A stretch of 64,000 nt of DNA from Leptogorgia sarmentosa (Eukaryota): assembly GCA_964658305.1 (NCBI GenBank), contig OZ210884.1, positions 3,844,001 to 3,908,000 on the forward strand. The letters are read 5' to 3'. Shown in pieces: positions 17,280-55,376 of the stretch. A model generated the notes under the pieces. It was given only the letters and a program-made list of their open reading frames with translations, was not told the DNA's origin and searched no databases. How positions within the stretch are numbered: the first letter of the stretch is position 1; every line of letters begins with the position of its first letter. The position numbers were made by a program, and so were the translations under genes.

Positions 17280-17349
17280 ATGGCTTGTCTTGTAGTACGT
17301 AATTGCCTGTTTATCTGTGTGTTTCTGACGATTTATGTGGAAACCAGAG
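17280..17349 (+). CDS. Putative first exon encoding a signal peptide ([24 protein letters not shown])
   Basis: ATG in AAAATGG context, basic residue then hydrophobic core, strong donor AG|GTAAGC in phase 1 matching the EGF exons. Confidence 0.65.
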
Positions 17350-26300: not shown

Positions 26301-29300
26301 CGATGATGAAATACTCGTCACATTTAAAATTTAATATACGATCTATACTATATGTCCACCCGTTGAACAAAGACCTCAACGGGTAGTACCCGATATTTCT
26401 CAATTGAGAACATGGGTAATGCCCACGCTGGATTATCGTCTAAGTAGCCTGGCCTGGTAAATTATGAACAGTGATTGCCCGGGTCTATAATCATATGCAT
26501 TTAGCCAGGCCAGAGTGGTGAGCAGCGAGCTCGATGTAGCTCAAGTGGTAAGGCACGCGGTGCGTGCGTTACAGTTCTATAGTTCAAGCCCCGGTTCGAC
26601 ACATTTTTTCAGCGTTAGTGATTAAACATTTTTTTCCTCAATATTTTTTCAACCACAATGGTCAGGGTTAGGATTCTAGGGTTTGGGTTGGGATTAAGGA
26701 AATTCTTAGTATATAGAAAAATGGTTTATATCTAACACTAATATAACTATATCAAGAGTAATACTGAAACGCCGACCAGCAAGCTTAGACGATAGTCCAG
26801 CGTGGGCATTACCCGTGTTCTCAATTGAGAAATATTGGGTACTACCCGTTGAGGTCTTTGTTCAACGGCTGATATGTCTTGGGGTAGTGATATCTAAACT
26901 GTACTTGCAGATACAAAGTATACAGAAATCCTGTATATATAACCATGATGAAATACTCGTCACATTTAAAATTTAATATACGACCTATACCATAGGTTTT
27001 GGGGGGTGATATCTAAACTGTACTTGCAGATACAAAGTATATACAGAAATCCTGTATATATAACCATGATGAAATACTCGTCACATTTAAAATTTAATAT
27101 ACGATCTATACTATATGTCTTGGGGTAGTGATATCTAAACTGTACTTGCAGATACAAAGTATACAGAAATCCTGTATATATAACCATGATGAAATACTCG
27201 TCACATTTAAAATTTAATATACGATCTATACTATATGTCTTGGGGTAGTGATATCTAAACTGTACTTGCAGATACAAAGTATACAGAAATCCTGTATATA
27301 TAACCATGATGAAATACTCGTCACATTTAAAATTTAATATACGATCTATACCATAGGTTTTGGGGGGTGATATCTAAACTGTACTTGCAGATACAAAGTA
27401 TACAGAAATCCTGTATATATAACCATGATGAAATACTCGTCACATTTAAAATTTAATATACGACCTATACCATAGGTTTTGGGGGGTGATATCTAAACTG
27501 TACTTGCAGATACAAAGTATACAGAAATCCTGTATATATAACCATGATGAAATAATCGTCACATTTAAAATTTAATATACGACCTATACCATAGGTTTTG
27601 GGGGGTGATATCTAAACTGTACTTGCAGATACAAAGTATACAGAAATCCTGTATATATAACCATGATGAAATACTCGTCACATTTAAAATTTAATATACG
27701 ACCTATACCATAGGTTTTGGGGGGTGATATCTAAACTGTACTTGCAGATACAAAGTATACAGAAATCCTGTATATATAACCATGATGAAATACTCGTCAC
27801 ATTTAAAATTTAATATACGATCTATACTATATGTCTTGGGGTAGTGATATCTAAACTGTACTTGCAGATACAAAGTATACAGAAATCCTGTATATATAAC
27901 CATGATGAAGTACTCGTCAAATATAAAATTTAATATACGAGTCTACTAGCTAGGTCTTGGGGGTAGTGATACCTATATACTGTAGTTGCAGATCAGCAGA
28001 TACAAAGTATACAGTAATCCTGTATATATAACCATGGTGAAACTGAAATAACCACTCCTTTTTAAGCGAATATTGTAGGTCACAGATGGCGTGGATTCGT
28101 AGTGAATCCTACTATATTTTCGGGAAATGAAAAGCCGATACACCGATTTTTGGTATCATAACCATTGTACGATCAGTTTTTGTCAAGCTGTTTAACAACG
28201 TTTATTCTTTGAAATCTCGAGTTTGTTGGTTGTAGCGCTAATCTAATAACTGCACACAATGTTGTTAACGTAATTGTAATATTTAGAATATCTACGTGCT
28301 TTATCGTCATTTTCTAACCCTATTTTGTGTGATTTTTGCCCAGATGATGGTCAGCATTTTCTATCAATTCAGTTATTTTTATAGATCAACGAGTAAATTT
28401 TTACATTTGGTCAGCGGAAATACCCACAAATTGCGTGGTTGCATCTGTGGTTATGTATACTGAAAAATGGATATGATACATATATCCAGATTTTCTTCGC
28501 TGAATGAAAGTGAACTCTCTTTTAAATGTATAATAAAACAATTATTGGATTCGGCTTTCGCATGATATCAAGAATTATTCAGACCTCGGTCAATGTTATC
28601 CGCCTCAGCTTCGCTTCGGCAGATAACATTGACCTCGGTCTGAATAATTCTTGATAATTATCATTCTCCGCCTCATCCAATAATTGTTTATTAAAGTAAT
28701 GAAAACCAAATATGTTACTGTTTTAACTTTTGTATCTTCCCGACATGATCAGTGAGGGCCTTCACATCATACGTTAATTAAAAACGTTTCTGGGTTCAAT
28801 ATAGACTAGCTTTCCTCGCTTTCAACGGTATTATTAATAATGTTCAACTCAAACACCGATACTTTTTTAAGACACTCGGTGGTCTAACTTTTCGTCTACG
28901 TAGAATAGGGTTGAATATATTCGACGTAGTCTTTCTTCCTTCATTTAAGGTCTAGCTCAGGGAAGGGAAGAAATGACAATTGTATTGTTTAGTCATATTT
29001 ACAACAAATGCAAAGTCTAAAATGATTCAATTTAGATCCAAACACGCACACCTAAATTATTGTTTAGAACCGCCCTTTGACGAGGAGTGTCTATATAATC
29101 ATAGTACGGACATTTGTGGCAGAAATTCTCAATGTAAGTATTGATACTGCTTGGGGTTCCAGACGCAAATGTAACCCTGGTTATTCAGGAGTGGTTTGTA
29201 CTGGTAAGGCTTGTTCTCTTATTATGTACGCGCCAATCATCTACCTTTTCCTGGTATATTCAATTAACATGTTCTTTATATTATAACCTATGCAAAATTA

Positions 29301-32300
29301 CATTACATCAGCACTACCAACGTTAACGCAGATTGATAGCTAATATCATTGCATTTCAGTCTGGTTCTCTTAATATATATGTATGTTTTGGAGAACATTA
29401 TAATCAAGGTGCATGTTCCAAGATTATATCATCGTTCTCCATAAGAATAGATTTTGTGAGTATAGTGAAATTAAAATTATTATAAAGTCTGTTACATGTA
29501 TTCTTAGATGAAGCCCGTAGCAGAGGGGGGGGGGGGGGTGCCCCACCCACTCGGAAATAAAATTGAAATTGTGCCCCCCTATTCCACAATCTTTTTGCCA
29601 TTTAAAAATTAGACAGCGAGGCTGTCTTGTCCATGAAAGAATAGTAATCGAAGGCGTAGCCTAATTATTTTGGTGTAGTAGCCACAAACACTATCACTGT
29701 GATAGTCAGTGTGACGTTTGAATATCTGAATATTAACAGAAATATAAATACATTTATATGCAGCTTTTGCTTTTTTGGTTTTAGTTAAGCCCACTTATGA
29801 CAGTAACGCCGACGAACTTGGTATGATAATACTTTGATAACACTGTAATATACCCTTTATTTTCATTTTGAAATTTTAATGTGTGTGAAACATGACATAC
29901 GACAAAGACCGTGGATCACTAACTAAACTAGCTGCGAGTTCAAAAGTTCAAAAGCGTACCAAATCTTTTTAAATTTTTTTTCTGCAGCGCCCCCCCCAGA
30001 AAAAAAGAGCCATGATCAATGTTCTTCGACTAACAACTGCCATTCCAATGCTGATTGCATCAACACTTATGGGTTTAACGTGTGCACTTGTCGCACTGGA
30101 TACAAAGGAAATGGAATTCTTTGCACTGGTAAACAAACCCCATTTATTAATAAAACCTGCCTTAAAAAGACAATTCAGAGTTGTTTTTTTAAATAAATGA
30201 GTGATAACCTAAAATATTGTTTTTTAAAGCTCTGCCAAATATTTTCAGATATCGATGAATGTTCTTTTTCTCGTGACAAAAACTGTCACAAAAATGCCAT
30301 TTGCAGCAATACTGATGGATCTTTCTTGTGCACCTGTGGCACTGGATTCACTGGAAATGGAATTCTTTGCACTGGTAAACAAACCCATTTACTAATAAAA
30401 CCTCTCTTAAAATAAAGACAATTCAGAGTTTTTATGAAATAAATGAGTGATTAAACCTAAAATATATATTTTTTAAATTTTTGTCAAATATTTTCAGATA
30501 TCGATGAATGTTCTTTTTCTCATGACAACTGTCACGAAAATGCCATTTGCAGCAATACTGATGGATCTTTCTTGTGCACTTGTGACACTGGCTATACAGG
30601 AAATGGAATTCGTTGCAGAGGTAGAGTCAAACTAATTTGGTTACATTAAAAATTTCCAAAAATCCTTTTCTATAATTAAGAGCGAAGATTCTGAAAAGAG
30701 GTAGTAATAATCTAAATGTCTATACGTGGAAGTTTTGAAAACGAAGGAAATGCTTCGAATGAATTAAGCTATCCATAAATGGTAAATAAATGTATAATTG
30801 TTGTATCCGTTTAGATATAGATGAATGTTCTCTTTCTCTTGACAACTGTCACGACAACGCCATTTGCAGTAATACTGATGGATCTTTCGCTTGCACTTGT
30901 GACACTGGATACACTGGAAATGGAATTCTTTGCACTGGTAATTACTAAACAAACCCATTTACCAATAAAACCTTCCCTTAAAAATAAAAATAATTCAGAG
31001 TTTTTATGATTATGAAATAAATTTGTTACAACCAAAAATATTTTTTTCGTGAAAGTTTTGTCAAATATTTTCAGATATCGATGAATGTTCTTTTTCTCGT
31101 GACAACTGTCACGAAAATGCCATTTGCAGCAATACTGATGGATCTTTCTTGTGCACTTGTGGCATTGGATACACTGGAAATGGAATTCTTTGCACTGGTA
31201 AACAAACCCATTTATTAATAAGACCTTCCTATAAAAAAAAATAATTCAGAGTTTTTATGAAATAAAAGAGTGATAACCTAAAAAATTGTTGCGAAAGTTT
31301 TGTCAAATATTTCAGATATCGATGAATGTTCTTTTTCTCGTGACAACTGTCACGAAAATGCCATTTGCAGCAATACTGATGGATCTTTCTTGTGCACTTG
31401 TGACACTGGCTATACAGGAAATGGAATTCGTTGCGGAGGTAGAGTTAAGCTAATTTGGTTACTTTAAAAATTTCCAAAAATCCTTTTCTATAATTAAGAG
31501 CGAAGATTCTGAAAAGAGGTAGTAATAACCTAAATGTCTACGTGGAAGTTTTCAAAACGAAGGAAAAGCTTCGAATGAATTAAGCTATCCATAAATGGCA
31601 AGTAGATGTATAATTGTTGTATCCGTTTAGATATAGATGAATGTTCTCTTTCTCTTGACAATTGTCACGACAACGCCATTTGCAGCAATACTGATGGATC
31701 TTTCGCTTGCACTTGTGACACTGGATACACTGGAAATGGAATTCTTTGCGGTGGTAATTACTAAACAAACCCATTTATTAATAAAACCTGCCTTAAAAAT
31801 AAAGATAATTCAGAGTTTTTATGATTTATGAAATAAATTGAGTTACAACCTATAATACAATATTTTTTTCGCGAAAGTTTTTTCAAATATTTTCAGATAT
31901 CCATGAATGTTCTTTTTCTCTTGACAACTGTCACGAAAATGCCATTTGCAGCAATACTGATGGATCTTTCTTGTGCACTTGTGGCATTGGATACACTGGA
32001 AATGGAATTCTTTGCACTGGTAAACAAACCCATTTACTAATAAAACCTGCATTAAAAATAAAGACAATTAGAGTTTTTATGAAATAAATTAGTTACAACC
32101 TAAAATATTTTTCTTGAAAGTTTTGTCAAATATTTTCAGATATCGATGAATGTTCTTTTTCTCGTGACAACTGTCACGAAAATGCCATTTGCAGCAATAC
32201 TGATGGATCTTTCTTGTGCACTTGTGACACTGGCTACACAGGAAATGGAATTCGTTGCAGAGGTAGAGTTAAACTAATTTGGTTACTTTAAAAATTTCCA

Positions 32301-35300
32301 AGAATCCTTTTCTATAATTAAGAGCGAAGATTCTGAAATGAGGTAGTAATAACCTAAATGTCTCCGTGGAAGTTTTGAAAACGAAAGAAATACTTCGAGT
32401 GAATTATGCTATCCATAAATGGCAAGTAGATGTATAATTGTTGTATCCGTTTAGATATAGATGAATGTTCTCTTTCTCTTGACAATTGTCACGACAACGC
32501 CATATGCAGCAATACTGGTGGATCTTTCGCTTGCACTTGTGACACTGGATACACTGGAAATGGAATTCTTTGCATTGGTAATTACTAAAGAAACCCATTT
32601 TCCAATAAAACCTGCCTTAGGAATAAAGATAGTTCAGAGTTTTTATGATTATGAAATAAATGAGTTACAACCTAAAATATTGTTTTCGTGAAAGTTTTGT
32701 CAAATATTTTCAGATATCGATGAATGTTCTTTTTCTCATCTCAACTGTCACGAAAATGCCATTTGCAGCAATACTGAAGGATCTTTCTTGTGCACTTGTG
32801 ACATTGGATACACCGGAAATGGAATTCGTTGCAGAGGTAGAGTCAAACTAATTTGGTTACATTAAAAATTTCCAAAAATCCTTTTCTATAATTAAGAGCG
32901 AAGATTCTGAAAAGAGGTAGTAATAATCTAAATGTCTATACGTGGAAGTTTTGAAAACGAAGGAAATGCTTCGAATGAATTAAGCTATCCATAAATGGTA
33001 AATAAATGTATAATTGTTGTATCCGTTTAGATATAGATGAATGTTCTCTTTCTCTTGACAACTGTCACGACAACGCCATTTGCAGTAATACTGATGGATC
33101 TTTCGCTTGCACTTGTGACACTGGATACACTGGAAATGGAATTCTTTGCACTGGTAATTACAAAAACAAACCCATTTACCAATAAAACCTTCCCTTAAAA
33201 ATAAAAATAATTCAGAGTTTTTATGATTATGAAATAAATTTGTTACAACCAAAAATATTTTTTTCGTGAAAGTTTTGTCAAATATTTTCAGATATCGATG
33301 AATGTTCTTTTTCTCGTGACAACTGTCACGAAAATGCCATTTGCAGCAATACTGATGGATCTTTCTTGTGCACTTGTGGCATTGGATACACTGGAAATGG
33401 AATTCTTTGCACTGGTAAACAAACCCATTTATTAATAAGACCTTCCTATAAAAAAAATAATTCAGAGTTTTTATGAAATAAAAGAGTGATAACCTAAAAA
33501 ATTGTTGCGAAAGTTTTGTCAAATATTTCAGATATCGATGAATGTTCTTTTTCTCGTGACAACTGTCACGAAAATGCCATTTGCAGCAATACTGATGGAT
33601 CTTTCTTGTGCACTTGTGACACTGGCTATACAGGAAATGGAATTCGTTGCGGAGGTAGAGTTAAGCTAATTTGGTTACTTTAAAAATTTCCAAAAATCCT
33701 TTTCTATAATTAAGAGCGAAGATTCTGAAAAGAGGTAGTAATAACCTAAATGTCTACGTGGAAGTTTTCAAAACGAAGGAAAAGCTTCGAATGAATTAAG
33801 CTATCCATAAATGGCAAGTAGATGTATAATTGTTGTATCCGTTTAGATATAGATGAATGTTCTCTTTCTCTTGACAATTGTCACGACAACGCCATTTGCA
33901 GCAATACTGATGGATCTTTCGCTTGCACTTGTGACACTGGATACACTGGAAATGGAATTCTTTGCGGTGGTAATTACTAAACAAACCCATTTATTAATAA
34001 AACCTGCCTTAAAAATAAAGATAATTCAGAGTTTTTATGATTTATGAAATAAATTGAGTTACAACCTATAATACAATATTTTTTTCGCGAAAGTTTTTTC
34101 AAATATTTTCAGATATCCATGAATGTTCTTTTTCTCTTGACAACTGTCACGAAAATGCCATTTGCAGCAATACTGATGGATCTTTCTTGTGCACTTGTGG
34201 CATTGGATACACTGGAAATGGAATTCTTTGCACTGGTAAACAAACCCATTTACTAATAAAACCTGCATTAAAAATAAAGACAATTAGAGTTTTTATGAAA
34301 TAAATTAGTTACAACCTAAAATATTTTTCTTGAAAGTTTTGTCAAATATTTTCAGATATCGATGAATGTTCTTTTTCTCGTGACAACTGTCACGAAAATG
34401 CCATTTGCAGCAATACTGATGGATCTTTCTTGTGCACTTGTGACACTGGCTACACAGGAAATGGAATTCGTTGCAGAGGTAGAGTTAAACTAATTTGGTT
34501 ACTTTAAAAATTTCCAAGAATCCTTTTCTATAATTAAGAGCGAAGATTCTGAAATGAGGTAGTAATAACCTAAATGTCTCCGTGGAAGTTTTGAAAACGA
34601 AAGAAATACTTCGAGTGAATTATGCTATCCATAAATGGCAAGTAGATGTATAATTGTTGTATCCGTTTAGATATAGATGAATGTTCTCTTTCTCTTGACA
34701 ATTGTCACGACAACGCCATATGCAGCAATACTGGTGGATCTTTCGCTTGCACTTGTGACACTGGATACACTGGAAATGGAATTCTTTGCATTGGTAATTA
34801 CTAAAGAAACCCATTTTCCAATAAAACCTGCCTTAGGAATAAAGATAGTTCAGAGTTTTTATGATTATGAAATAAATGAGTTACAACCTAAAATATTGTT
34901 TTCGTGAAAGTTTTGTCAAATATTTTCAGATATCGATGAATGTTCTTTTTCTCATCTCAACTGTCACGAAAATGCCATTTGCAGCAATACTGAAGGATCT
35001 TTCTTGTGCACTTGTGACATTGGATACACCGGAAATGGAATTCGTTGCAGAGGTAGAGTCAAACTAATTTGGTTACATTAAAAATTTCCAAAAATCCTTT
35101 TCTATAATTAAGAGCGAAGATTCTGAAAAGAGGTAGTAATAATCTAAATGTCTATACGTGGAAGTTTTGAAAACGAAGGAAATGCTTCGAATGAATTAAG
35201 CTATCCATAAATGGTAAATAAATGTATAATTGTTGTATCCGTTTAGATATAGATGAATGTTCTCTTTCTCTTGACAACTGTCACGACAACGCCATTTGCA

Positions 35301-38300
35301 GTAATACTGATGGATCTTTCGCTTGCACTTGTGACACTGGATACACTGGAAATGGAATTCTTTGCACTGGTAATTACAAAAACAAACCCATTTACCAATA
35401 AAACCTTCCCTTAAAAATAAAAATAATTCAGAGTTTTTATGATTATGAAATAAATTTGTTACAACCAAAAATATTTTTTTCGTGAAAGTTTTGTCAAATA
35501 TTTTCAGATATCGATGAATGTTCTTTTTCTCGTGACAACTGTCACGAAAATGCCATTTGCAGCAATACTGATGGATCTTTCTTGTGCACTTGTGGCATTG
35601 GATACACTGGAAATGGAATTCTTTGCACTGGTAAACAAACCCATTTATTAATAAGACCTTCCTATAAAAAAAATAATTCAGAGTTTTTATGAAATAAAAG
35701 AGTGATAACCTAAAAAATTGTTGCGAAAGTTTTGTCAAATATTTCAGATATCGATGAATGTTCTTTTTCTCGTGACAACTGTCACGAAAATGCCATTTGC
35801 AGCAATACTGATGGATCTTTCTTGTGCACTTGTGACACTGGCTATACAGGAAATGGAATTCGTTGCGGAGGTAGAGTTAAGCTAATTTGGTTACTTTAAA
35901 AATTTCCAAAAATCCTTTTCTATAATTAAGAGCGAAGATTCTGAAAAGAGGTAGTAATAACCTAAATGTCTACGTGGAAGTTTTCAAAACGAAGGAAAAG
36001 CTTCGAATGAATTAAGCTATCCATAAATGGCAAGTAGATGTATAATTGTTGTATCCGTTTAGATATAGATGAATGTTCTCTTTCTCTTGACAATTGTCAC
36101 GACAACGCCATTTGCAGCAATACTGATGGATCTTTCGCTTGCACTTGTGACACTGGATACACTGGAAATGGAATTCTTTGCGGTGGTAATTACTAAACAA
36201 ACCCATTTATTAATAAAACCTGCCTTAAAAATAAAGATAATTCAGAGTTTTTATGATTTATGAAATAAATTGAGTTACAACCTATAATACAATATTTTTT
36301 TCGCGAAAGTTTTTTCAAATATTTTCAGATATCCATGAATGTTCTTTTTCTCTTGACAACTGTCACGAAAATGCCATTTGCAGCAATACTGATGGATCTT
36401 TCTTGTGCACTTGTGGCATTGGATACACTGGAAATGGAATTCTTTGCACTGGTAAACAAACCCATTTACTAATAAAACCTGCATTAAAAATAAAGACAAT
36501 TAGAGTTTTTATGAAATAAATTAGTTACAACCTAAAATATTTTTCTTGAAAGTTTTGTCAAATATTTTCAGATATCGATGAATGTTCTTTTTCTCGTGAC
36601 AACTGTCACGAAAATGCCATTTGCAGCAATACTGATGGATCTTTCTTGTGCACTTGTGACACTGGCTACACAGGAAATGGAATTCGTTGCAGAGGTAGAG
36701 TTAAACTAATTTGGTTACTTTAAAAATTTCCAAGAATCCTTTTCTATAATTAAGAGCGAAGATTCTGAAATGAGGTAGTAATAACCTAAATGTCTCCGTG
36801 GAAGTTTTGAAAACGAAAGAAATACTTCGAGTGAATTATGCTATCCATAAATGGCAAGTAGATGTATAATTGTTGTATCCGTTTAGATATAGATGAATGT
36901 TCTCTTTCTCTTGACAATTGTCACGACAACGCCATATGCAGCAATACTGGTGGATCTTTCGCTTGCACTTGTGACACTGGATACACTGGAAATGGAATTC
37001 TTTGCATTGGTAATTACTAAAGAAACCCATTTTCCAATAAAACCTGCCTTAGGAATAAAGATAGTTCAGAGTTTTTATGATTATGAAATAAATGAGTTAC
37101 AACCTAAAATATTGTTTTCGTGAAAGTTTTGTCAAATATTTTCAGATATCGATGAATGTTCTTTTTCTCATCTCAACTGTCACGAAAATGCCATTTGCAG
37201 CAATACTGAAGGATCTTTCTTGTGCACTTGTGACATTGGATACACCGGAAATGGAATTCTTTGCACTGGTAAACAAACCCATTTATTAATAAAACCTGCC
37301 TTAAAAATAAAGACAATTCAGAGTTTTTATGAAATAAATGAGAGATAATCTAAATTATTTTTTTCCGGTGCGTAACTCCCCGTCCATAACCTAAATAGAG
37401 CTTTCTGATTGGTTGCCGAGCGGTCCGTATCCTACGGTACGGACTGCACGCATTCTCGTAGATACAAACATAGTCAATGTTTTTGTTTTTTAAAATTGAA
37501 TAACCGCTTTTTAAAACATTCAAAACGAATTTAGGAGATAAAGAACACATGAAAGTTCATTTTATCATGCTAAGGGATATTTTAGGGGGTATTTACAGCG
37601 ACAAAAACGCATAAGTATCAAAAAGTCTCATCAGTATGAACAAAACAAGACATTCTCGGCGAAATATTTCGGTGCCTAAAGCGTATTTTCACCATGTTTG
37701 TATCGTGAAACAAACGGGAACATAAATCATCTTAATACGTTTACCCTTTTCGTAGTAATGTTGAGTGGAAAAGCGTCAATATTGAGGCAAATGCGTCAAT
37801 ATTGAAGGGTTTTTTCTCACTTCGTCTTGGCTGTTTAGCAGCCATACTTGCGATAGAGTAGCAAAGTAAACAAACACAACTGATCTCAAAAACTAGTTCG
37901 CAACGCTGGAATTTTTGACGAATTTTATCATAAAATAGAGGAGAAAAAAAAAAGAAAGTTATTTACCATTTAGGTCGGTCCGTACTGGAAAATATTTTGT
38001 CTCGGTCTCAAAAACGTCCCTCAGCCTTCGGCCTCGGGCCGTTTTCGAGACCCTGACAAAATATTTTCCAGTACAGGTCCGGACCTCCCAGCTGGTAAAT
38101 AACATATGTATATATTTTTTTTTGAAAGTTTTTTAAAATATTTTCAGATATCGATGAATGTTCTTTTTCTCATCTCAACTGCCACGAAAAGGCCATTTGC
38201 AGCAATACTGCTGGATCTTTCTTGTGCACCTGTGACACTGGATTCACTGGAAATGGAATTCTTTGCACTGGTAAACAAACCCATTTACTAATAAAACCTC

Positions 38301-41300
38301 CCTTAAAATAAAGACAATTCAGAGTTTTTATGAAATAAATGAGTGATTAAACATAAAAAATATTTTTTTGAAAGTTTTGTCAAATATTTTCAGATATCGA
38401 TGAATGTTCTTTTTCTCATGACAACTGTCACGAAAATGCCATTTGCAGCAATACTGATGGATCTTTCTTGTGCACTTGTGACACTGGCTACACAGGAAAT
38501 GGAATTCTTTGCAGAGGTAGAGTTAAGCTAATTTGGTTACTTCAAAATTTCCAAGAATCCTTTTGTTGAATTAAGAGCGAAGATTCTGAAAAGAGGTAGT
38601 AATAACCTAAATGTCTACGTGGAAGTTTTCAAAACGAAGGAAATGCTTCGAATGAATTAAGCTATCCATAAATGGTAAGTAAATGTATAATTGTTGTATC
38701 CGTTTAGATATCGATGAATGTTCTCTTTCTCTTGACAATTGTCACGACAACGCCATTTGCAGTAACACTGATGGATTTTTCGCTTGTACTTGTAACACCG
38801 GATACACTGGAAATGGAATTCTTTGCAGTGGTAATTACTAAACAAACATATTTACTAATCAAACCTGTCTTAGGAATACAGATAATTCAGAGTTTTTATG
38901 ATTTATGAAATAAATGAGTTACAACCTAAAGTATTTTTTGTGAAAATTTTGTCAAATATTTTTAGATATCGATGAATGTTCTTTTTCTCGTGACAACTGT
39001 CACGAAAATGCCATTTGCAGCAATACTGATGGATCTTTCTTGTGCACTTGTGACACTGGCTACACAGGAAATGGAATTCGTTGCAGGGGTACAGTTAAGC
39101 TAATTTGGTTACTTTAAAAATTTCCAAGAATCCTTTTCTATAATTAAGAGGGAAAATTCTGAAAAGAGGTAGTAATAACCTAAATGTCTACGTGGAAGTT
39201 TTCAAATCGAAGGAAATGCTTCGAATGAATTAAGCTATCCATAAATGGTAAGTAAATGTATTGTTGTATCCGTTTAGATATCGATGAATGTTCTCTTTCT
39301 CTTGACAACTGTCACAACAACGCCATTTGCAGTAACACTGATGGATCTTTCGCTTGCACTTGTGACACTGGATACACTGGAAATGGAATTCTTTGCACTG
39401 GTAAACAAACCCATTTACTAATAAAACCTTCCTTAAGAAGAAAGATAATTTATAATTTTTATGAAATAAATGAGGTAGAACCTAAAATATTGCTTTTGTG
39501 AAAGTTTTTTCAAATATTTTCAGATATCGATGAATGTTCTTTTTCTCATGACAACTGTAACGAAAATGCCATTTGCAGCAATACTGATGGATCTTTCTTG
39601 TGCACTTGTGACATTGGATACACTGGAAATGGAATTCTTTGCACTGGTAAACAAACCCATTTACTTATAAAACCTGCATTAAGAAGAAAGATAATTTATA
39701 GTTTTTATGAAATAAATGAGGTACAACATAAAATATTGTTTTTGTGAAAGTTTTTTCAAATATTTTCAGATATCGATGAATGTTCTTTTTCTCATGACAA
39801 CTGTCACGAAAATGCCATTTGCAGCAATACTGATGGATCTTTCTTGTGCACTTGTGACACTGGATACACTGGAAATGGAATTCTTTGCACTGGTAAACAA
39901 TCCCATTTACTAATAAAACCTGCCTTAATAATAAAGACAATCAGAGTTTTTATGAAATAAATGAGTGATAACCTAAAATATTTTTGCGAAAGTTTTGTCA
40001 AATATTTTCAGATATCGATGAATGTTCTCTTTTCCTTCACAACTGTCATCACAACGCCATTTGCAACAACACTAACGGATCATTCGTTTGTACTTGTGAC
40101 ACTGGATACACGGGAAATGGAATTCTTTGCATTGGTAAACAAATCCATTAATTAATAAAACCTGCCTTGAAATAAAGATAATTCAGTTTTTTGATAGAAT
40201 AAAGAAGTTATAACCTAAAATATTTTATTTGTGAATGTTTTGTCATATATTTTCAGATATCGATGAATGTTCTTTTTCTTGTGACAACTGTCACGAAAAT
40301 GCCATTTGCAGCAATACTGATGGATCTTTCTTGTGCACTTGTGACATTGGATACACCGGAAATGGAACTGTTTGCAAAGGTGAAATTTAAATAGGTGCTG
40401 AACGGTAATTTGATTCCCCAACATCTTAAATATCTTTCTCGTTTAATAGAAACAAACAACAAGTAAACTTTTCAGGAAATTCTTGAAAGATTTTATATAG
40501 AACTAATTAAACTAGTCACATGTTGTTTAAACATTCATTAAATGTGTTTAAACATTCATTAAATGGAGAATATCATAAACGCACATGTTTGTTATTTCTC
40601 AAGCTACCAATGTATATTTTTATGTGAAAAAGTAATTTGCAGAGGTAAACTGAATAAAATATGTATTTTTTATTCCTCAAATTTTCGACAAAATGTGTTG
40701 AAAACCTGAAACCTTTTTGGCGTTCCTTTCAAAATCTAATTATTCTGTGATTATTGTCTCAATACAATTGTCTATTTGTAATCTTCGAAACTTTGTATTG
40801 CTAATGAGAAACTAAAAGGAACATAAAAGATATGAGCTAGCAACACTACTTCAATGTTCGTATAACCAGCGCAACATGATTGAAGCCTTGGTTTCGACAA
40901 TAAATACAAGATTTTAAACATAATTTTCTCTTTGGCGTGCCGTCCAAATCTATTTTCTTCATTGCATATCATAAATTATGTATCCGCCAGGTTTTTGAGG
41001 TTAGTCTACTAACCGAGAAACTTCAACTTCGGAATACATATTTTGAAGAACCTGAGCTTTGAGCGCGAGATACGGAAATACAGAAAATCTTTGTCTTAGT
41101 AAAACCTGCCTCTGAAATAAAGATAAATTTGTATTTTAACCGAAAGATTAATATCCTCAACTTGAAAAAATTATATGTGGACGTTCTCTTTTATATGTTT
41201 AGATATCGATGAATGTTCTCTTTTCCTTCACAACTGTCACGAAAATGCCACTTGTACTAACACTAACGGATCATTCGTCTGCATTTGTGTCTCTGGGTAC

Positions 41301-44300
41301 ACCGGAAATGAAACACTTTGCAGTGGTAAACTAAATAAACTTGTTAACAAGACGTTCTCCCAATTGTGGAATAAAGATAAAAATGTAGAAAGATGAAAAA
41401 ATTATGTGGACATTAACTGTTGTATATGTTTATTAGATATCGATGAATGTTCTCTTTCTCTTGACAACTGTCACGACAACGCCATTTGCAACAACACTGA
41501 CGGATCTTTCGTTTGCACTTGTGACACTGGATACACTGGAAATGGAATTCTTTGCAGTGGTAAACAAGTCTATTTATAAAAGGCCGTCCCTTAAAAATAA
41601 GGATAATTCAGAGTTTTAATGAAAAAAGAGGTATAACCTAAGAAAATTGTTGTGAAAGTTTTGTCAAATATTTCCAGATATCGATGAATGTTCCCTCTTT
41701 CTTGACAACTGTCACGAAAATGCCATTTGCAGCAATACTAATGGATCTTTTTTGTGCACTTGTGACATTGGATACAATGGAAATGGAACTGCTTGCGAAG
41801 GTAAATTGGTGGCGAACGGTAATTTGATTCCCCAGGAGACCAAGTACGTAGTCATTTGGGTGCAAAATGAAACTCTATTTCAATTTTCAAACTCATTGCG
41901 TGTGAGTGACCGCTGCTAATTCATATTCCACGGCCAGTATAATTTCGCAATAATGTCCATTATTTCTCGCCATGAAATATCACACTCGTTTAATACACGC
42001 AAACAACAAGTAGCTAAACTTTTCATTAAATTCTCGATAAACTCCACATATAGTCTAAAAAAGAACTAATAGAACTAATTATAGTAGTCACATGTTGTTA
42101 TTTCAATTTTTTTTTAAGAAAATGTGATTAATTCTTCATATATACTTCAATGAAGATGGTAATTGTATATGTTTAGATATCGATGAATGTTCCCTTTCTC
42201 TTGATAACTGTCACGATAACGCCATTTGCAAAAACACTCATGGATCTTTCTTGTGCACTTGTGACACTGGATACACTGGAAATGGGACTTTTTGCAGAGG
42301 TAAACGAGAGGAACTAAACATTTTGAAGTTTCTTTACAGAAATTTTACGGAAATATTTGTAAAATAAAGATTTTGATAAAAAACATTTTCTAACCATTTT
42401 TAATAGATATTGATGAATGTTCAACAAATACTCACAATTGTGACAATAATGCTATCTGTATCAATAAGAATGGATCCTTCACTTGTGATTGTAAATACGG
42501 ATATACTGGAGATGGACTATCGTGTCAAGGTTAGTGAATGTCTGTTTTATGTCTAATGTTTGTTTGTTTTTAGTTATCTTGTTGCTCTTTGTTTTCGTTC
42601 TCATTTCAACACGATGTTTTCTATTTCCTACATACAGGTATGCAGCTTGAGCGATGATCTATATATTGCACTTTATTTCTTTAGTTCTTTGAACTGAGTG
42701 CCACTATTCTTCACAGAGGGCATGCCCTCTGGGAAGATTTAAACTCAACAGTATCGCAAACGCCATTTCCTGCATTTGTGTGGAAGGTTTCACAGTATTT
42801 TGAAGCCCATAAAACGGCGCAGGTGTAAAAAAATTTAGAATCTGGTGCGTTACAACGGAATACAATACAGATAGTTGAAGATGATCGAACTTACCTCGGC
42901 CGAAAAATTAATATCGACAAACTTTTTGGGTTTTCCCATGAAAACAGGGATAAGAATTAACGCATGTGTTTCTGCGGCTCAGTGAGTATATGGCTCGCTC
43001 AATTTCTCCACCGGACAATATGCTAAGTAACTCTAAAAAGATTTTCAAAAGGACGTTAAACAATATTTTTCAGTAGGCCCAAAAAAATTTTAAGGTAGGC
43101 CCAACAAACTCCAGGGTAGGCGCTGGCCCATCTTGGCCCACCCTTGGGCCGGCCCTGATACAAATTTTAAAAGGCAAAAGCACAAATGAAGAACAAAATT
43201 CTAAACAATATGACCTCTAAATCTTTCACAATGGTGTTCAATAAAAATAATGAAATAATTGTAGATTTAGAAATATTCCACCAGCTAATGGTAGTGGTCA
43301 CCATGGCCTCGCCTCACCATATCGTACTCTACTCTGAGGTCTTTCTCTTTATATAGGTCCTCCAATCGTATATGTGACACCAACTAATGTAACAGCTGTT
43401 GAAAACACGTACAGTAATACTGTTTTGTCTTGTAACTGTGGGTGCTCAATCCGACCGTATTGGTTCAAAAACAGTCAGTTGATTCATTTCAACAAAAGTC
43501 AGTCCCAGTACACTTTGTTGGCAAATGGAAGCTTGCATATCAACATTTCCAGAGTTGCATCCGGGCACTACAGTTGTGAAGTGAGATGGATGGATAGAAC
43601 ACATTATTGGAGTGTGAGGTCAGAGCAAGTTCGGCTTGAAGTATGGTGTAAGTATGATAATTTTCTTTTTCTAATAACCGTCATATAATTACTCCGCCTA
43701 GATTAATGGATACGCTGAAATTTGTCGGCGAAATAGAGTAGTAAACGAACGAACAATTTGAAAACGGAAACCAAACTTGTTTGAATATTTTTGCTCACCA
43801 TAAAAAAAATCTCCTCCCGCAATTTGACGGAAAATTTCCCCCTTCAACACCCGAATAATCCTCGAAAACACGTTTGTGTTAAAAAAAAGCTTTTTTAATT
43901 GACAAAGCCACTTCACAATTCCACCAAAAGATCTTTCTGGCAGTAGCTATATAGGGTAAACTTCGGCTTTTAGCAGTGCATTTTCTAATAATTCTTTTGT
44001 GATTCCAGATTTAGATGATTGTTATGTAACAGGTGATCAGCAGGTTTATGAAGGACAAAATATAAGCTTGAAATGCAATGGAACAGGATACCCTATTCCT
44101 ACATTTGCATGGTACTTGGGTGGACGTCAACTGAAGATCAATCCTCGGATAAATATAAATGAAAATCAGTTGAATATTTTAAATGCTACCGCAATGGACG
44201 AAGGGGAATACGCATGCGTTGCTATTAATCGAGCCGGCCAGGTGTCGTATAAAGTCGACGTTGACGTAGAAGGTGGGCGGGTGGCTTTTATGATAGTGTT

Positions 44301-47300
44301 ATCATTTTGAGAATTAATGGTTCTAATTTTCCGTTGATGATTTGTTGACTACTCCAAAAAGTATACTGTCTGCCTCTTGAGGAATAAAAATAAGTAAATA
44401 TCGAGCATAACTCATGCCGCTTGCTTAAAATTAGAAGATACGACGTACGTCAGCAGTTATTTTTTGGTGATCTTTGCTAATAAATCCACAACCCGAATAA
44501 GAAGATAAATTAATCATGTACACATGCAAAAATAACTCGAATATGTTAAGAACATGAAAATACAGAGTAATCAAGTATAGTATAAAATAATTGACGTTGT
44601 AAACAAGCCAAACATGGCCCTTAATCTATCATGCATGTGAAATTTTATTATCTTTCATCAGATGTTCCTTCCATTCAAATGTTGGCAAATGTCCCAAAGT
44701 ATATTGTTGAAGGAACAGCTGTTCGATTCACATGTCGATGGATGAATTTGTCTTATATCGGTCTGATTTCAAAGATGCAACTAGTGAAAGATGGACGCTC
44801 TTTTTATCAGTGGTCAGAGCTCAAATTGGTTGGTTATACATTTACGACACTGTTTCGCGCGGCGGTAAGCCACACAGGAAGATACCAATGCAAAGGAACA
44901 ATTGGTGCCGCGTCACGTTATTCTTCACCCTTCTCTCTGGTAGTTGGCAGTAAGTGCAGTTATTCCATCACCTGTGATGTCATACGAAAATGCTATTTTA
45001 TAGATTAGCCGTATAATTATTAAAAAATATAAACGTTCTCTGACTAAAATTTAATTAAAACGAGCTTTCGACTATACCTAACTGTAGTCTTCGACGGGTA
45101 AAGTGGAATAGGTAGTCGAAAGCTCGTTTTTAAATAAATTTTAGTCACTCGGAGAACGTTTATATTTTTTAATTATGCATGTCTAAACCTGGCTACGCTA
45201 TCTCCATATTTTCTCGTATAATTATTATTCAAATGTTTTTTCACAACTGATAGAAAGTAGAGCTATAGGCTTATAGCTAAAGCAAAAGTATTTTCTACGC
45301 CAATAAAAAGTAAAAATGCATATACGTAGCTGCATGCAATTCTCTAACTGTATATAGAGAAACGATGGTAAACCGTCGAACTATCACTTCCGCACCCAGG
45401 AGTTCGTTCGTTTAAGGCAACAAACAGTTTGATATCAGATGCATGATTATTTTTGATATAGTACCATCAGGACCTGTTGTGTTAGAGAAAAAAAAAGAAA
45501 CCAGTACAACCGGAATAAAACTTTCATGGAAACCTATCTCAAAGACGTTTTGGAATGGAGAGCAAGTGGAGTTTATAGTTAATGTTTCTTCAATGGATCC
45601 GATTTGGCAAAAATCTTATATAACGAAAGCAACCAATGCAATAATATCAAGTCTACGTCCAGCAACTAGATACACTGTTAGTATTACAGGAAACACAGTT
45701 TTTGGTCCATTTCAAAATTCTGCCGTTGCTGTGTTGGAGACTAAAGAAAGTAAGTCAAGTAATCCAAAGTCTACTGTTTTGGTCAAGGATACAGTTACAG
45801 ATTAATGATGGCCTCCTTAACTGTCATATATGTTTTTGAAATCTCAATTATTCAAAGCGAATTTGATTGAAACACCTAGCTACGTAATTCCATAAAAGAT
45901 GAAATCATTAACGATCTTACGTCTCGTTATGAAATTTCTTATTATTGCAGATAAAAACAGCATGAAATTCCAGCTACGAATACGATTAACAAACTATGAA
46001 TTTTCGAAAAGCTCACTGGACCCAACTTCTACTCAGTATAAGAACCTGAAATCTAAACTGGAGTATTCGGTACGCCAAAACACTTATTTTTTCGTTTTCT
46101 TCTTATTCTAATATAATATTTTCTTCTTATATTTAATTTATTATGAGTAATTATGATTTATGATGACAGTTGAGTGAAATTCTGTGTTTTAAGCTTGACG
46201 ATATCTTTCAAAAATCTGACATCAATTTTCTATACATCGGCTCAACTGTTTCCGGATTTGCGTAAGTAAATGTTATTAATAACTATTCTTATAATATTCT
46301 GAAATCAAATTTGGCATTAATTCATGGGTATTTGTACAAAGCTGTGAAAAATGATTTTTACTCGTTCTCATATTATATAGAGAAGGAAGTGTTGTGGTAT
46401 TGGCTGTTCTGTCCTTAGACACCAAATTTAAAAGCTCCTCCTCATCAAAACTTGCCCAAGAAATAAACCAAGCTGACACAATTGCTGGATACAGATTTGA
46501 CAAGTCTTACACAAAAGAAGAAGGTATATTATATTAACATTTTTGTCTCATAGTTCAAAACTGGAAACGATGGTTAATCAAGATGACAACTCAAGAGAGG
46601 TGACTATTTCACACGCAAAGATCTTCAACGACATATAGGTTTACCGATGCATGAAAAGAAACTTACGCTTATAATTTCATTTAGCTAGTAAACACCAGCA
46701 TTCATAGATGTAGATTTCAATAACTACTCCGTTTACCAGCGTATTCGAAATAAATATATATATATTACTGCATGCGTATTATAGATTTTGATGAATGTCA
46801 GAATGCTGATTTTAATACCTGCCACGAATACGCACATTGTGAAAATGATGTGGGAACTTACATTTGTAAATGTTTTGATGGTTTCTTTGGTGACGGTGAA
46901 GAATGTCAAGGTAGAACGAATTTATTGATCTTTATGGTTAAATCAATGAGTGTAAATCACTGATAATGAAAAAAAAACGAGATTCCAGAAACACTTGAAG
47001 TATATAGGCCTACTTTTTTACAGGTCCTCCTCAAATTACAACAAAATCACCAGCAACTATTACCCAGGTCGTTGAAAAAAACGTGACTCTAGTTTGCGAA
47101 GTGATTGCTGATCCTAACCCCACAATTACTTGGAGACGTTTTGATCCTCATGGCAAATATGATGTAATCAAACGCACAGTTGACAAGGTTGATGGGAATT
47201 ATACGATTTACAATGCACGTTTAAACGACTCTGGAAAATATGTATGTAATGTGTCGAACAAGCTTGGCTACGATTTCTACATCACAGAAATAACAATAAA

Positions 47301-50300
47301 ACCAGGTATAAAAAAGCTACTGTTGTCCATTGTGCATATACCATTAGCAATAACATCAATGAGCTTGTCATGTACAAAAACCTAAATAAATGCAAATACT
47401 TTTTTTCTGCAGAGATTGTTAACATAAGTGTTGAGATAAAGCTTTCCAACGAAACATTCAAGGAAGAATTGAACAATAAATCTTCTTCTGCCTATAAAGT
47501 TTTAGAAAAGGACGTGTATGTCGAGGTAATTTTATTTGTTTTGGAAAACTGAACAAATTGCCTTAGTCAACTTGCTGTATTTTTTTATAAACTGTGGTTA
47601 TAAACCGTCAACCGTGGTTATAAAATGTGGTTATAACCGTGGTTATAAACCGCGGTTATAAACCGTGGTCATAAACCGTGGTCATAAAGCGTGGTTAAGA
47701 ACTGTGGTTAAGAACCGTGGTTGGGAACCGTGGTTATAAACTGTGGTTATAAACCGTGGTACGAATGGGTGTTATCCTACTTTCCAGCAAAAAAACCATG
47801 GACTATACATAGTCCATCACCATACAACATCTCAATTCGAATTGGAATTCTTAAATTTCATGAATTCCTGGTCCCTATTTTTTAAGGCAGGCCTGTCTGT
47901 AATATTTTTTAATTTCATCTTATGCACTATCATTACTTTTCAGCTGTACAATTTTTTCAACAATACTCCTGGATTTAAAGACATAGAGATTCTTGGATTC
48001 GTGTAAGCAGTAAATTACACATATTTCACTTTCTAGGATCTACATTGTATACGATTTTAATGTTTTGCATTCATTAGCTTTCTCACATTCATAGTTTCAG
48101 TTTAAATCGAAAATTAGGCTACAGTATATTCTTATAAAATCACAACAGTCTGCAAGTGGATTTTGAAAATATCGTAGATAAAGTAGCTACCAAATTGATT
48201 TACGATCCTTCAGCATGCCAAATGATGAAGCTAAAAGAGTATACTACTAAAGTTAATGGACGATTGTTGACATATTACAAACTTCAGTGTTTTATCTTCG
48301 CTATAGTAAAGGAAGTGTAAAAGTAATATTTCGAGTCGTTATGAAAGTCCTAAAACCTTCAAAAGAAACAAACGATGTTGTTGCAGTAAAAGTTGGTCGG
48401 AAAATCAGTAAGCAATTAAAGACAGGTCGCATTGGCAATATCCTGGTTGTTCCTGAGGCTATACAGCTCAGAGGTAATATAACGTTAAGGGGTCCAGCCT
48501 CCCTCCTCCGCCACCTCCAAAAAAATGAATGAAAATTTACAAGGAACCGTTCACAGGCACTAAATTTCATATTTTATTATTTGAAATATTGTCTGGAAAA
48601 ACTTAGCCAAACTTCATCTCTTTGTTCAAGTAAATGCAGACTTGTGCAAGGTGAAGGCACAAGCATCCATCCAACTTTCATCCATTCACCATTTGCATCC
48701 ATCTTGCAACACGATCGCTCGTTCGGCAAATAATTAAGGATATATTTTTTTCTTCAGCTGTTATTCTAAATCTCTTTGTTAAAATTTAGTTCCACCGCCT
48801 CCACCGGCCAACGTCACTTATTCAGATGTACGGGAAACAAGAGTACATGTCCGTTGGGATCCACCTGAACTCGATAAAATGTTCTCCATTAAACGATATT
48901 ACATCACCTATTTAAAGCAAGGAGAAAACGTATGGTTTAATAACACGATCAATGTTGACCAAGAAACTAATTTCCAACTGGATGACCTGGAAAGTGACAC
49001 GTTTTACACTCTGAAAATAGTTGCTGAGAATGACTATGGCCTTGGTAAAGAAAGCAGCGGAATGGAAATTAAAACTATGAAAGTTAAAGGTTAGTGGAGA
49101 TATCTAGATCGATAGCTAAAAAAAAAAAGTTCGAGTTTGCTTTGCGTAACAAATAATTTATAATGGTATCACAATCTGCCTCAGTTTGTGTTATCTGCCT
49201 CGGCCTTTGGCTCTATGTTATTCAATAATTGTTTAATAATATTTTTTTTTCTCGAAAAAATCATCTGAATAATAAAATATTCACCTCAAACTTGGTGAGT
49301 ATCGGTGCAAACCAATTCCATCTGAATGAATAAATTTGAAAATCGTTATATTTATTGCTCATGATTCTCTTATTTTAGTTATTTCACCATGGTATTGGAT
49401 TGCTCCAATCATTGCCGTTGCTTGCATTTTGTTAGTGTTGGCTATTATCTTTTTGGTGAGACGAGTTTTGCTCAGTCGTGCTTGGAGACTTCCAGACATA
49501 AATCACGACTCCAGAAAAATGGAACAAAAGGTAAATTTTTTTTTACATTGAATATAATATTAAACAACATCGTCGAAAGGTGACACAAAGGATAAAGGTG
49601 TGAGGAACTCACAATTTTTAAGCAAAGGTATTTTTTGATTTAGCATCCTGGTCCAAATAGTAACATTAAAGCCATGCTTCTTTGTTGTGCCGAATTTGGC
49701 ATTGACTTCCAAGGAGTTATGCATCTTTGTATTTAGCGGGAGGGCTAGGCTAGCTATCGAAGTGAAATTGTGAGATATACAGTACTGTGCAAAAGTTATC
49801 GGCACCTCGTGAAAAAGCATTTGACGCCATCTTATTGTAAACTTATCGTATAAGTTTACAATAAGTTTACAATAAGGTGGCGTCAAATGCTTTTTCACGA
49901 GGTGCCTATAACTTTTGCATCGTATAAGTTTACAATAAGATGGCGTCAAATTGCTTTTTCACGAGGTGCCTATAACGTTTGCATCGTATAAGTTTACAAT
50001 AAGATGGCGTCAAATGCTTATTCACGAGGTGTCTATAACTTTTGCACAGTACTGTATATTGTGAAAGATGGATATATTGACATGGCACAGATATGTAAGA
50101 TTGCTTTATGAATACCAATTTTAGGTGTTGACCATATTCTAAGTTGCATTAAATTATCCACCTGTTTAATTTTTCTCAAATTATTTTTAAGACGTCGACT
50201 TTCCAGATGATAACAAGACGAAGGCACAATAAAAATTCGAATGAAAACTTGGTATTCAGTTCAGGCACTCATAAAAGCCGAGCATGGACAGAATTTGCAA

Positions 50301-53382: not shown

Positions 53383-54052
53383 ATGAATTTTAAAGCATAA
53401 TATATAATGATGTGCCATTTTCTTTTGCATTCATGGCTCCAGGATGTGATGTTCCATTTTTTATTTTTCCTTTTTAGTCTTTTGTCGAGGTGCCTCTTAA
53501 CACTAAGAACTGATCTACACTGACCATCATCATGACCAGCAATTGACCGTTTTTTATTAACTTTTTGCATTGGGTCTCGAATTAAACATATATGGGACCA
53601 AGTTGATGTGGGACAGTAAAATATAACAATCATTAATAGTATGTGCGAAGTATATATAGGAGTGATCATATACGTAAAGAACTTCGATTAATATTATGCT
53701 TTATAAAAGTACATTAAAGAGCAGTAGTTTGGGTGTAGCCTTTCTTGTTTTTGGTTAAAAATATAATTCTTGGAAATGGTGTTAGCGGTGCATGTGGTTA
53801 TATGAAGCCAAGAAAAGTATAATTACTATAATTATGCTGGATAAGACTCAACTTTTTATTTTCTTTGTATATGACATGAGTCTTACATTACAGAAAGAGA
53901 TTTCTCTTAAAAATCGTATAATGAGATTTTTACTACAATAAGGTGAATAAATAAAATTTTTTTCTTGGTCATTAAAACCGTGTGCGTTTATTGTTGACGA
54001 AATAGCAATATGGCGCCAACGCAACTAAAGCAATTTTTGAAAAATTTAATTG

Positions 54053-54717: not shown

Positions 54718-55376
54718 CTGAAACGAAAACATAGCAGAAACTGGTAATGCAAGTGTCAACATGCCGTAAGTATTATAAAAGAACTTCAATATATGGCCAA
54801 TGTAGGTAGCGGAGAACAATAGGGAGTTTAAGCTTCGCGTATTCCACGAAACTTCAAACACGAGGATCCCGTTTATCGTTCATATTTGACGTTTCTGGAA
54901 CGGTGCATTAAGCTTCGGATTTCTCCTTGTTTCCCTTCAGGAATTAAACAACACAATTATACTCGACAAAATAACACCTAAATTAGAGTCTTAATATCAT
55001 TGTAGTCAATTTCCTGGGCCTTGATTGGCTAAAAAGCTTCAACAACTGTGCGAATTAAACATTAATTACACAGACGAGAATTTTCTGTATGTCACGTATC
55101 TCGCGCTCAAAACTTAAATTCGTCGATATACAAATTTCAAATTTTGAGGTTTCTCAATCGACAGACTCACTTAAAAAGCTTGATGGATTCATAATTAATG
55201 ATATAAAACGACAATAGAGAGATTTTGGAGGGTACGCCAAAGAGAAAATTACATTTGAAATTTTGCATTTATTGTTGAAATCAAGGCTTCATTTATATTG
55301 CGCTGGTTATACAAACATTGATGCTCATAATTTTTATATTTCTTTGAGTTTCTCAATACCCAGACATAATACCCAG

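Follow-up and report, generated by a model that had tools for sequence, protein, structure and literature searches.

A 64,000-nucleotide stretch of the Leptogorgia sarmentosa genome (contig OZ210884.1, assembly GCA_964658305.1; hereafter the window) contains a receptor gene in which a block of eight EGF exons stands three times in tandem. We consider it probable that this triplication is real and very young, that it likely arose by unequal crossing-over between near-identical exons, lengthening the predicted stalk from 25 to 41 EGF modules, and that some but likely not all chromosomes of the species carry it. The positions of the features are collected in Table 1.

Table 1. Positions of the features in the window and the basis of their assignment
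Feature	Position	Strand	Description
Predicted first coding exon	17280..17349	+	phase 0-1; contains an ATG and a hydrophobic, signal-peptide-like stretch; assigned by inspection with a check of the frame
Degenerate EGF-like exon relic	29068..29203	+	136 nt, frameshifted; excluded from the gene model
EGF exon 0	29988..30128	+	141 nt, phase 1-1; Pfam EGF_3 6.9e-10
EGF array	30249..42529	+	40 calcium-binding-type EGF exons, phase 1-1
Tandem triplication	30599..37259	+	3.0 x 2,216 bp; each unit has 8 exons (328 aa)
Exon 10, chimeric junction exon	32714..32836	+	begins as exon 26 and finishes as exon 2; tract in common at 32815-32827
Exon 18, second chimeric junction exon	34930..35052	+	shared tract 35031-35043; run X1 has an exact 50-nt contig (35011-35060)
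Enlarged S-type intron	37269..38147	+	grown to 879 nt by inserted DNA that carries a 39-nt inverted repeat; bounds the triplication on the right
Three Ig-domain exons	43357-43647, 44009-44272, 44662-44949	+	Pfam; each phase 1-1
FN3, SEA (3 exons), EGF, Ig, SEA (3 exons), FN3	45462..49089	+	Pfam; 7 introns are GT..AG joints in X8, X9
Transmembrane exon	49379..49530	+	hydrophobic stretch in translation; joined to FN3 in X8, X9
Tyrosine-kinase domain and stop	50192..53513	+	9 exons; Pfam PK_Tyr_Ser-Thr; 4 introns are GT..AG joints in X8

All 40 exons of the EGF array are bounded by AG and GT, free of stop codons, and of phase 1-1; 39 are 123 nt long and one is 126 nt, in agreement with the original prediction of symmetric exons with lengths divisible by three. 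Thirty-nine encode six cysteines and one encodes seven, and the 40 exons specify 24 distinct peptides, among which the predicted variants SFSRD, SLSLD, SFSHL, and SFSLD, as well as DIDEC and DIHEC, were found. The predicted count of 40 holds between 30249 and 42529, but exon 0 had been overlooked and brings the row to 41. The relic upstream of exon 0 and the repeat boundaries inside exons 2 and 26 had also escaped notice. Calcium-binding EGF modules are characterised by six cysteines and the motifs D-x-D-E-C and C-x-N-x4-F-x-C. These motifs are invariant across the array except for an aspartate-to-histidine change in exons 7, 15, and 23, and all four array exons scanned with Pfam EGF_CA (PF07645) scored 39.6–45.4 against the curated cut-off of 27; exon 0 scored 22.6, under the cut-off. 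The pN/pS ratio over 23 distinct array exons was 0.42, with the six cysteines invariant throughout. Every EGF exon also contains an imperfect 24-nt palindrome, and pairing with the same motif of another exon is conceivable.

The array is composed of exon-plus-intron cassettes with a three-exon rhythm, in which introns of three principal types, R (about 192 nt), L (about 138 nt), and S (about 120 nt), follow one another in the order R-L-S; 36 of the 39 introns are 107–194 nt long. The in-register copies of the larger 2,216-bp unit occupy positions 30599–32814, 32815–35030, and 35031–37246. Pairwise comparison of the three gave 3, 0, and 3 differing alignment columns, consisting of a substitution beside a single inserted nucleotide at 30946 and a 1-nt indel in an A run at 31233, and the introns are identical except at these two sites. 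The proposal that 24 central exons lie in three near-identical blocks with homogenised introns is borne out by these data. At a lag of 2,216 nt, perfect identity runs for 3,810 nt, whereas the longest run at any lag of 50–1999 nt within the array is 115 nt, so that the identity of the repeats is far above chance. The proposed sub-units of 816, 824, and 576 bp have the stated sizes, but the 576-bp sub-unit contains two exons instead of three; the other two are 93.7% identical. Three levels of repetition can thus be read in the array (exon, three-exon, and eight-exon), and because each unit holds 8 × 123 coding nucleotides, the intact gene stays in frame when a unit is added or lost. The exons at the 3′ edge differ from exons 3–10 by means of 25.0, 11.2, 17.5, 17.4, and 40.5, compared with 11.0 within the unit; the divergence predicted for this edge applies to four of the five exons and fails for exon 37. 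Exon 34 is divergent too (19.4), though it lies outside the edge as originally drawn. An exon tree was poorly resolved (2 of 24 inner branches starred) and was left out of the ordering of events.

The repeated segment begins within exon 2 and ends within exon 26, and one and the same 13-bp tract lies at both points. Apart from 3 nt, all of them 3′-terminal, exons 10 and 18 are identical to exon 26, and they carry the end of exon 2 together with its intron; 17 junction 31-mers are confined to these two exons. Such chimeric exons are the mark of an unequal crossover within exons, and they provide direct support for the crossover that had been proposed. We presume that exons 26 and 2 mispaired, out of register with the three-exon rhythm. 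A crossover between the two would have generated the eight-exon unit (nine minus one), the chimeric exon, and the short 576-bp sub-unit, and a later in-register exchange would have added the third copy. Since these crossovers take place at equal positions of phase 1-1 exons, the frame would be kept at each gain or loss. The product would be a calcium-stiffened stalk of variable length, encoded by constitutively spliced exons, on a receptor whose NFG-type kinase is likely impaired.

The model of the host gene consists of 65 exons that encode 2,920 amino acids without an internal stop, and the predicted order of the protein is EGF41-Ig3-FN3-SEA-EGF-Ig-SEA-FN3-TM-tyrosine kinase. The first coding exon, which gave no Pfam match, is the least secure element of the model, since none of the compared runs covers it; the Pfam matches of the two SEA domains are below cut-off and confined to the first exon of each. 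The protein has the ectodomain, the single transmembrane segment, and the kinase domain with HRDLAARN of a receptor tyrosine kinase. The HRD motif, the beta3 lysine, and the alphaC glutamate are retained, whereas DFG is replaced by NFG and the G-loop reads SGEFG, so that the canonical DFG aspartate and the first glycine of the full GxGxxG loop are missing. The NFG replacement suggests a pseudokinase-like protein with likely impaired kinase activity. The reading that NFG is a sign of decay of the gene was rejected, since four more distant relatives, at 80–86% identity, carry it too. Among 107 matches of the kinase exon, the six closest have NFG, 100 have DFG, and one was unparsed. Protein searches with the FN3 exon matched none of 18 candidates; those with Ig1 gave 38 matches, namely ten single-exon fragments (53–96% identity) and otherwise weak hits (at most 44%) to long Ig-repeat proteins, and the K3 search returned three fragments. 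An annotated full-length relative combining 41 calcium-binding EGF modules, Ig, FN3, and SEA domains, and an NFG kinase was not found in these protein searches, which is weak evidence; literature searches found no publication matching the architecture, and the accessible part of PMC8662651 does not cover the family.

Runs X8 and X9 contain the gene's 3′ half in spliced form, and 11 of the 15 joints listed (of 27) are GT..AG at introns of the model. The transcripts of both runs differ from the window, that of X9 at 63 of 1,348 nt, and may derive from a paralogue. Among 40 of 231 recorded sites, with alleles and paralogues pooled, 18 of 31 coding differences were nonsynonymous. The original prediction also held that any subset of EGF exons could be skipped in frame, a possible source of length or isoform diversity. 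On this reading the array would act as an isoform generator, giving many receptor lengths per allele in the manner of CD97, which yields forms with 3, 4, or 5 EGF modules through skipping according to the accessible text of PMC13565010. The phase 1-1 of every exon would permit such skipping, and the 24-nt palindromes could pair between exons. However, phase 1-1 is shared by all four Ig and both single-exon FN3 domains of the gene; the splice sites of the 40 exons are canonical throughout, with 107–194 nt in 36 of 39 introns; and, in two sets of 82 and 90 inverted-repeat pairs, none of the 25 longest of each forms a dedicated intronic docking pair. Moreover, the 24 peptides differ little, so that skipping would alter length more than specificity. 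None of the 15 listed joints (of 27) skips an EGF exon, a result that pertains to exons 34–40 under thin, RNA-like cover by contigs. The one EGF-to-EGF splice carries a variant that the window lacks and stands as a loose end at 41557 in X8 and X9; both runs have scant or zero cover over Ig1–Ig3 and the EGF exons, and these gaps are uninformative. A Thr/Pro-rich exon in front of an exon-40-like EGF in X8 and X9 seemed to suggest skipping of the whole array, but nothing in the window matches it (13 of 30 positions mismatched), and it was assigned to another gene or allele. Diversification by skipping is therefore unsupported and improbable.

Evidence for variation at the DNA level came from read contigs of six of 16 runs (X1, X4, X5, X7, X8, and X9), none of the 16 being recorded as RNA; contig depth here is one figure per contig and not a copy number. 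An exact contig of X1 with a depth of 216.8 covers all 17 junction 31-mers, extending less than 31 nt to either side of the shared tract, which is below the bridging criterion. The unit-specific contigs have depths of 300.6, 318.1, and 359.4, giving a junction-to-unit ratio of 0.60–0.72, about 2:3. Seven of the eight long flank contigs listed have depths of 160–209 (mean 188), and the eighth, with many differences, has 106. Expressed in units of 94, all seven exact array contigs amount to 1.07–1.46 times the window copy number, against the 2 expected if the array were homozygous. Within a rough calibration, these depths likely fit three units on one haplotype and not on two. A count of 6–7 units per diploid genome was dropped on the flank depth. 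X1 may be the source of the assembly and is thus not independent; for this reason, and given the roughness of the depths, polymorphism of unit number is regarded as likely and no more. In the eight flank pieces listed, run X7, which comes from a different sample and study, departs from the window at 72 of 3,126 nt, about 51 per 2,216 bp, against 0–1 substitutions per 2,216 bp between the array copies, a closeness to be read with the caution that polishing can homogenise repeat copies (PMC9779670, accessible part). Array variants not found in the window are present in X1, X4, X8, and X9. The coding VNTR of the original prediction is therefore supported indirectly, by a depth that fits one haplotype and by copies far more alike than the flanks of two individuals; the haplotype difference itself is likely.

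The triplication may instead be real but fixed in the species, with concerted evolution keeping the copies identical and the receptor length constant. Homogenised exon-intron repeats of spider MaSp2 are 99.7–100% identical (PMC9779670, accessible part), and the independent sample X7 has a junction-type exon at 35000–35056 with 1 mismatch (at least 3 to other window exons; depth 4.1), so that such a chimera may predate or outrange the triplication. In addition, some flank exon contigs have depths of 219–323 and loose ends point to related genes; if the 3′ region had a close paralogue, the flank depth might be doubled and a homozygous array go unnoticed. We nevertheless regard fixation as unlikely, since the array depth of X1 falls short of twice the window copy number, the X7 contig differs from exon 18, and X4 and X5 have variant intron flanks. 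These two runs have no contig across the junction, and such gaps in cover are uninformative. The older units of the array have drifted to 94% identity, which indicates that homogenisation here is not generally perfect. An assembly error, by over-expansion or by collapse of a longer array, is very unlikely, although copies 2 and 3 are identical, copy 1 differs mainly by A-run indels, and no contig spans the array, because the junction sequence is present in read-derived contigs, exactly so in X1, and the depth ratio fits about three units, whereas two units on the haplotype would give about 0.5 and six or more over 0.8.

A young triplication by unequal crossing-over would show a multi-exon coding repeat caught in the act, in which the junction exon, the parent exons, and all three repeat levels are readable, and its length alleles could be scored with a single PCR. 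The crossing-over mechanism itself is textbook, and the array adds a clean example from an invertebrate to a type of coding repeat that is already known. If the polymorphism is true, it offers an invertebrate test of whether variation of ectodomain length is tolerated or selected. A bolder and rather doubtful extension is that the gene represents an undescribed, probably anthozoan family of NFG kinase-impaired receptors, whose constantly recombining EGF stalk might serve as a heritable molecular ruler; haplotypes would then differ by tens of nanometres of reach and several percent of Ig/SEA sequence, setting the contact distance or self/non-self recognition between individuals.

Several known systems resemble parts of this gene. 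The Tie/angiopoietin receptors have the order Ig-Ig-EGFx3-Ig-FN3x3, which is unmatched by EGF41-Ig3-FN3-SEA-EGF-Ig-SEA-FN3 with its SEA domains. Among 157 proteins, the best named kinase matches were P0078 and P0079 of Dendronephthya gigantea (40–41% identity), anthozoan Ig/FN3 receptor tyrosine kinases. P0078 shares Ig and FN3 domains with the host receptor, but neither protein has an EGF array in Pfam and P0079 keeps DFG; at about 40% identity they may not be orthologues, and they hint only weakly at the animal group. CD97/ADGRE5 is likewise a receptor with an N-terminal array of EGF modules in single exons, but its length changes through alternative splicing of five exons (PMC13565010, accessible part), whereas the evidence here favours a change of the DNA. 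Ascidian HrVC70/HaVC80 and the sponge aggregation factors are also invertebrate surface proteins with repeated modules; the accessible parts of PMC9265791 and PMC5400394 describe high polymorphism, internal duplications of exons with introns in AqAFC, a duplicated eighth EGF in HaVC80, and phase 1 in 154 of 155 AqAF introns. These proteins have a biochemical link to self/non-self recognition and, in those parts, no kinase domain, whereas our receptor has a kinase and is known from sequence alone. Argiope MaSp2 shares with the array the repeated exon-intron ensembles, the homogenised alternating intron types, and the divergent ends, and unequal crossing-over has been proposed for it; it encodes low-complexity silk with two intron types, in contrast to folded EGF modules with three types and a third repeat level (PMC9779670, accessible part). 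Its authors state there that alternating homogenised introns were known to them from no other gene, and the EGF array is a further one. As in LPA and the human nebulin triplicate (NEB TRI), near-identical tandem units here include both exons and introns. The 5.6-kb kringle IV-2 unit of LPA is also a multi-kilobase coding repeat, but its population range of 1–40 units per allele has been measured (PMC11462820, accessible part), whereas depth was available here in one sample. NEB TRI is the closest precedent, consisting of three copies of an eight-exon set, introns included, and its copy number varied, with both normal and pathogenic variants, in 13% of over 300 samples from patient families; its blocks are of 10 kb and belong to a sarcomeric protein, whereas the 2.2-kb EGF blocks belong to a receptor stalk, have their boundaries inside exons, and are cut from an older three-exon rhythm (PMC9109913, accessible part).

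All of the 40 EGF exons originally predicted at 30249–42529 were recovered by a splice-site scan: each has AG/GT ends, is phase 1-1, and encodes six cysteines, with a length of 123 nt in 39 exons and 126 nt in one. A 41st EGF exon and a frameshifted relic had been overlooked (see the table). Across 23 distinct EGF exons, pN/pS was 0.42 and the six cysteines were invariant. The exons at the 3′ edge, which had been described as divergent, exceed the core divergence in four of five cases; exon 37 does not, and exon 34 is also more divergent than the core. Exon 35 (40257–40379) encodes a seventh, unpaired cysteine. Each EGF exon contains an imperfect 24-nt palindrome (e.g. 31094–31117), which spans the codons after Cys1, the most variable part of the exons.

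At a lag of 2,216, perfect identity extends over 3,810 nt; the best lag of 50–1999 gave 115 nt. The region 30599–37259 corresponds to 3.0 units whose in-register copies differ at 3, 0, and 3 columns, in agreement with the three almost identical blocks of the original prediction. The proposed sub-unit sizes (816, 824, and 576 bp) are also real, but the 576-bp sub-unit has two exons, not three. The array introns follow an R-L-S rhythm, where R is about 192 nt and the related L and S are about 138 and 120 nt, respectively. With two units taken out, the remaining exons form three triplets (2-3-4, 5-6-7, and 8-9-26). The junction exons, 10 and 18, depart from exon 26 only at the 3′ end, where three bases are those of exon 2; the intron of exon 2 then follows. 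The switch lies within a 13-bp tract found at 30599, 32815, 35031, and 37247. A crossover in which exon 26 had mispaired with exon 2 would leave such a structure and is its probable origin. Such a crossover would produce the 8-exon unit, one exon short of three triplets, together with the chimeric exon and the two-exon sub-unit, and a second exchange, in register across 2.2 kb, would produce the third copy. The reading frame would be kept by any such crossover.

In the public sequencing run X1, an exact 50-nt contig (depth 216.8) spans all 17 of the 31-mers specific to the junction, and the unit-specific contigs have depths of 300.6, 318.1, and 359.4. The junction-to-unit depth ratio (0.60–0.72) fits three units and two junctions. 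Because the junction contig is below the length needed for the bridging rule and X1 is possibly the source of the assembly itself, these data exclude a mis-join better than they provide independent replication. Seven of the eight long X1 flank contigs listed have depths of 160–209 (mean 188), and the eighth and two structural joints are at 106–110, about half. With one haplotype taken as 94, all seven exact X1 array contigs are at 1.07–1.46 times the window copy number, not twice. Most simply, the triplication would be missing from the other chromosome, which would have a shorter or diverged array instead. The triplicated copies are at most one substitution apart, whereas the flanks in X7, a run from a different sample and study, show 72 differences from the window over 3,126 bases, or about 51 per unit length. 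The triplication is therefore far more recent than the sequence differences between individuals. Against polymorphism, contig depth is a rough measure without genome-wide calibration, evident related genes could double the flank depth, and a junction-type exon with one mismatch occurs in X7 at depth 4.1. On balance, we consider it probable that the triplication is real, young, and polymorphic, and it is likely segregating.

X1 also contains an EGF exon variant at 41525 (depth 363), shared with the runs X8 and X9, whose motif is not in the window. It may come from an exon that was amplified separately, either on the other haplotype or in a paralogue.

Calcium-binding EGF modules in tandem assemble into semi-rigid rods, at roughly 2.5–3 nm per module, so that each unit would add about 20 nm. 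The triplication would account for a gain of about 45 nm in a stalk of about 110 nm, and our default interpretation is tolerated drift of a spacer. The original prediction was that any subset of the symmetric exons could be skipped in frame. The symmetry permits skipping but is no sign of it, because all four Ig and both single-exon FN3 exons are equally phase 1-1. No joint listed skips an EGF exon, within a thin cover of exons 34–40 only. As for intronic docking sites, the inverted repeats listed are instead mostly the small palindrome inside each exon.

The 65-exon model of the host gene (17280–53513; first exon predicted) encodes 2,920 aa without an internal stop. The order is predicted signal peptide, 41 EGF, three Ig, FN3, SEA, EGF, Ig, SEA, FN3, TM, and tyrosine kinase, with the domains assigned by Pfam and both SEA assignments scoring below the cut-off. 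This domain order is not that of a Tie receptor. Among the 15 joints listed (of 27), 11 come from X8 and X9, which are not recorded as RNA runs, and are GT..AG joints at introns in the SEA1-to-kinase part of the model. Of the others, three are X1 DNA differences and one, in X8 close to the 3′ end, misfits the model. The X9 transcripts differ from the window at 63 of 1,348 nt. Since the X8 and X9 transcripts diverge from the window, they show expression of the receptor gene or a close paralogue. The ectodomain (43357–49530) is highly variable between runs, the 281-nt Ig4 exon having 18–20 differences in X8 and X9; 18 of the 31 coding differences listed are nonsynonymous, with alleles and paralogues pooled.

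In the kinase, HRD, the beta3 lysine, and the alphaC glutamate are present, but DFG reads NFG and the first glycine of the G-loop is absent. Kinases without the DFG aspartate are usually impaired in catalysis, and this one may be too. NFG occurs in six of the 107 matches of the kinase exon, namely the closest ones (four at 80–86% identity), and is thus a family trait. This family, the 51836–51958 exon and the relatives P0051–P0053 and P0057–P0059 from the protein search, is seen solely as unannotated exon fragments. Among the proteins retrieved, the soft coral Dendronephthya gigantea supplies the best named kinase matches (40–41%), which weakly suggests an anthozoan.

A 7-kb stretch of the first predicted intron (20835–28042) is occupied by two satellites, with 94-bp and 119/120-bp units, that are related and face each other in inverted orientation, their arms being up to 90% complementary; the second array is broken by an element with 88-nt inverted ends (26357–26871). 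The RING-finger and Kelch ORFs (4178–7996, minus strand) are perhaps one gene split by a retroelement.

Additional features of the window
Feature	Positions	Strand
Minisatellite, 31-bp unit	1–366	
Minisatellite, 100-bp unit	2054–2801	
Kelch ORF	4178–5200	-
Reverse-transcriptase fragment, between Kelch and RING-finger ORFs	5373–6242	+
RING-finger ORF	7304–7996	-
MYND finger + DUF4470 ORF	8973–10598	+
Minisatellite, 21-bp unit	16465–16596	
Frameshifted relic	29068–29203	
41st EGF exon	29988–30128	
Minisatellite, 13/39-bp unit	47585–47760	
Minisatellite, 64-bp unit	49861–50046	
ABC transporter fragment, intron-poor, just downstream of receptor	54053–54772	-
Patched/sterol-sensing domain fragment, intron-poor, just downstream of receptor	56708–57196	+

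A literature search within one library, made without the species name, found no description of the receptor. The EGF triplication works like the nebulin triplicate, in which eight exons occur three times and copy changes are both tolerated and pathogenic (PMC9109913), and also resembles LPA KIV-2 (PMC11462820). Other reports describe homogenised, alternating introns in Argiope MaSp2 (PMC9779670), sponge and ascidian surface proteins that are polymorphic, built of repeated modules, and encoded with phase 1 introns (PMC5400394, PMC9265791), and EGF skipping in CD97 (PMC13565010). The mechanism is known; the present case is new and unusually clear, in an unannotated receptor family.
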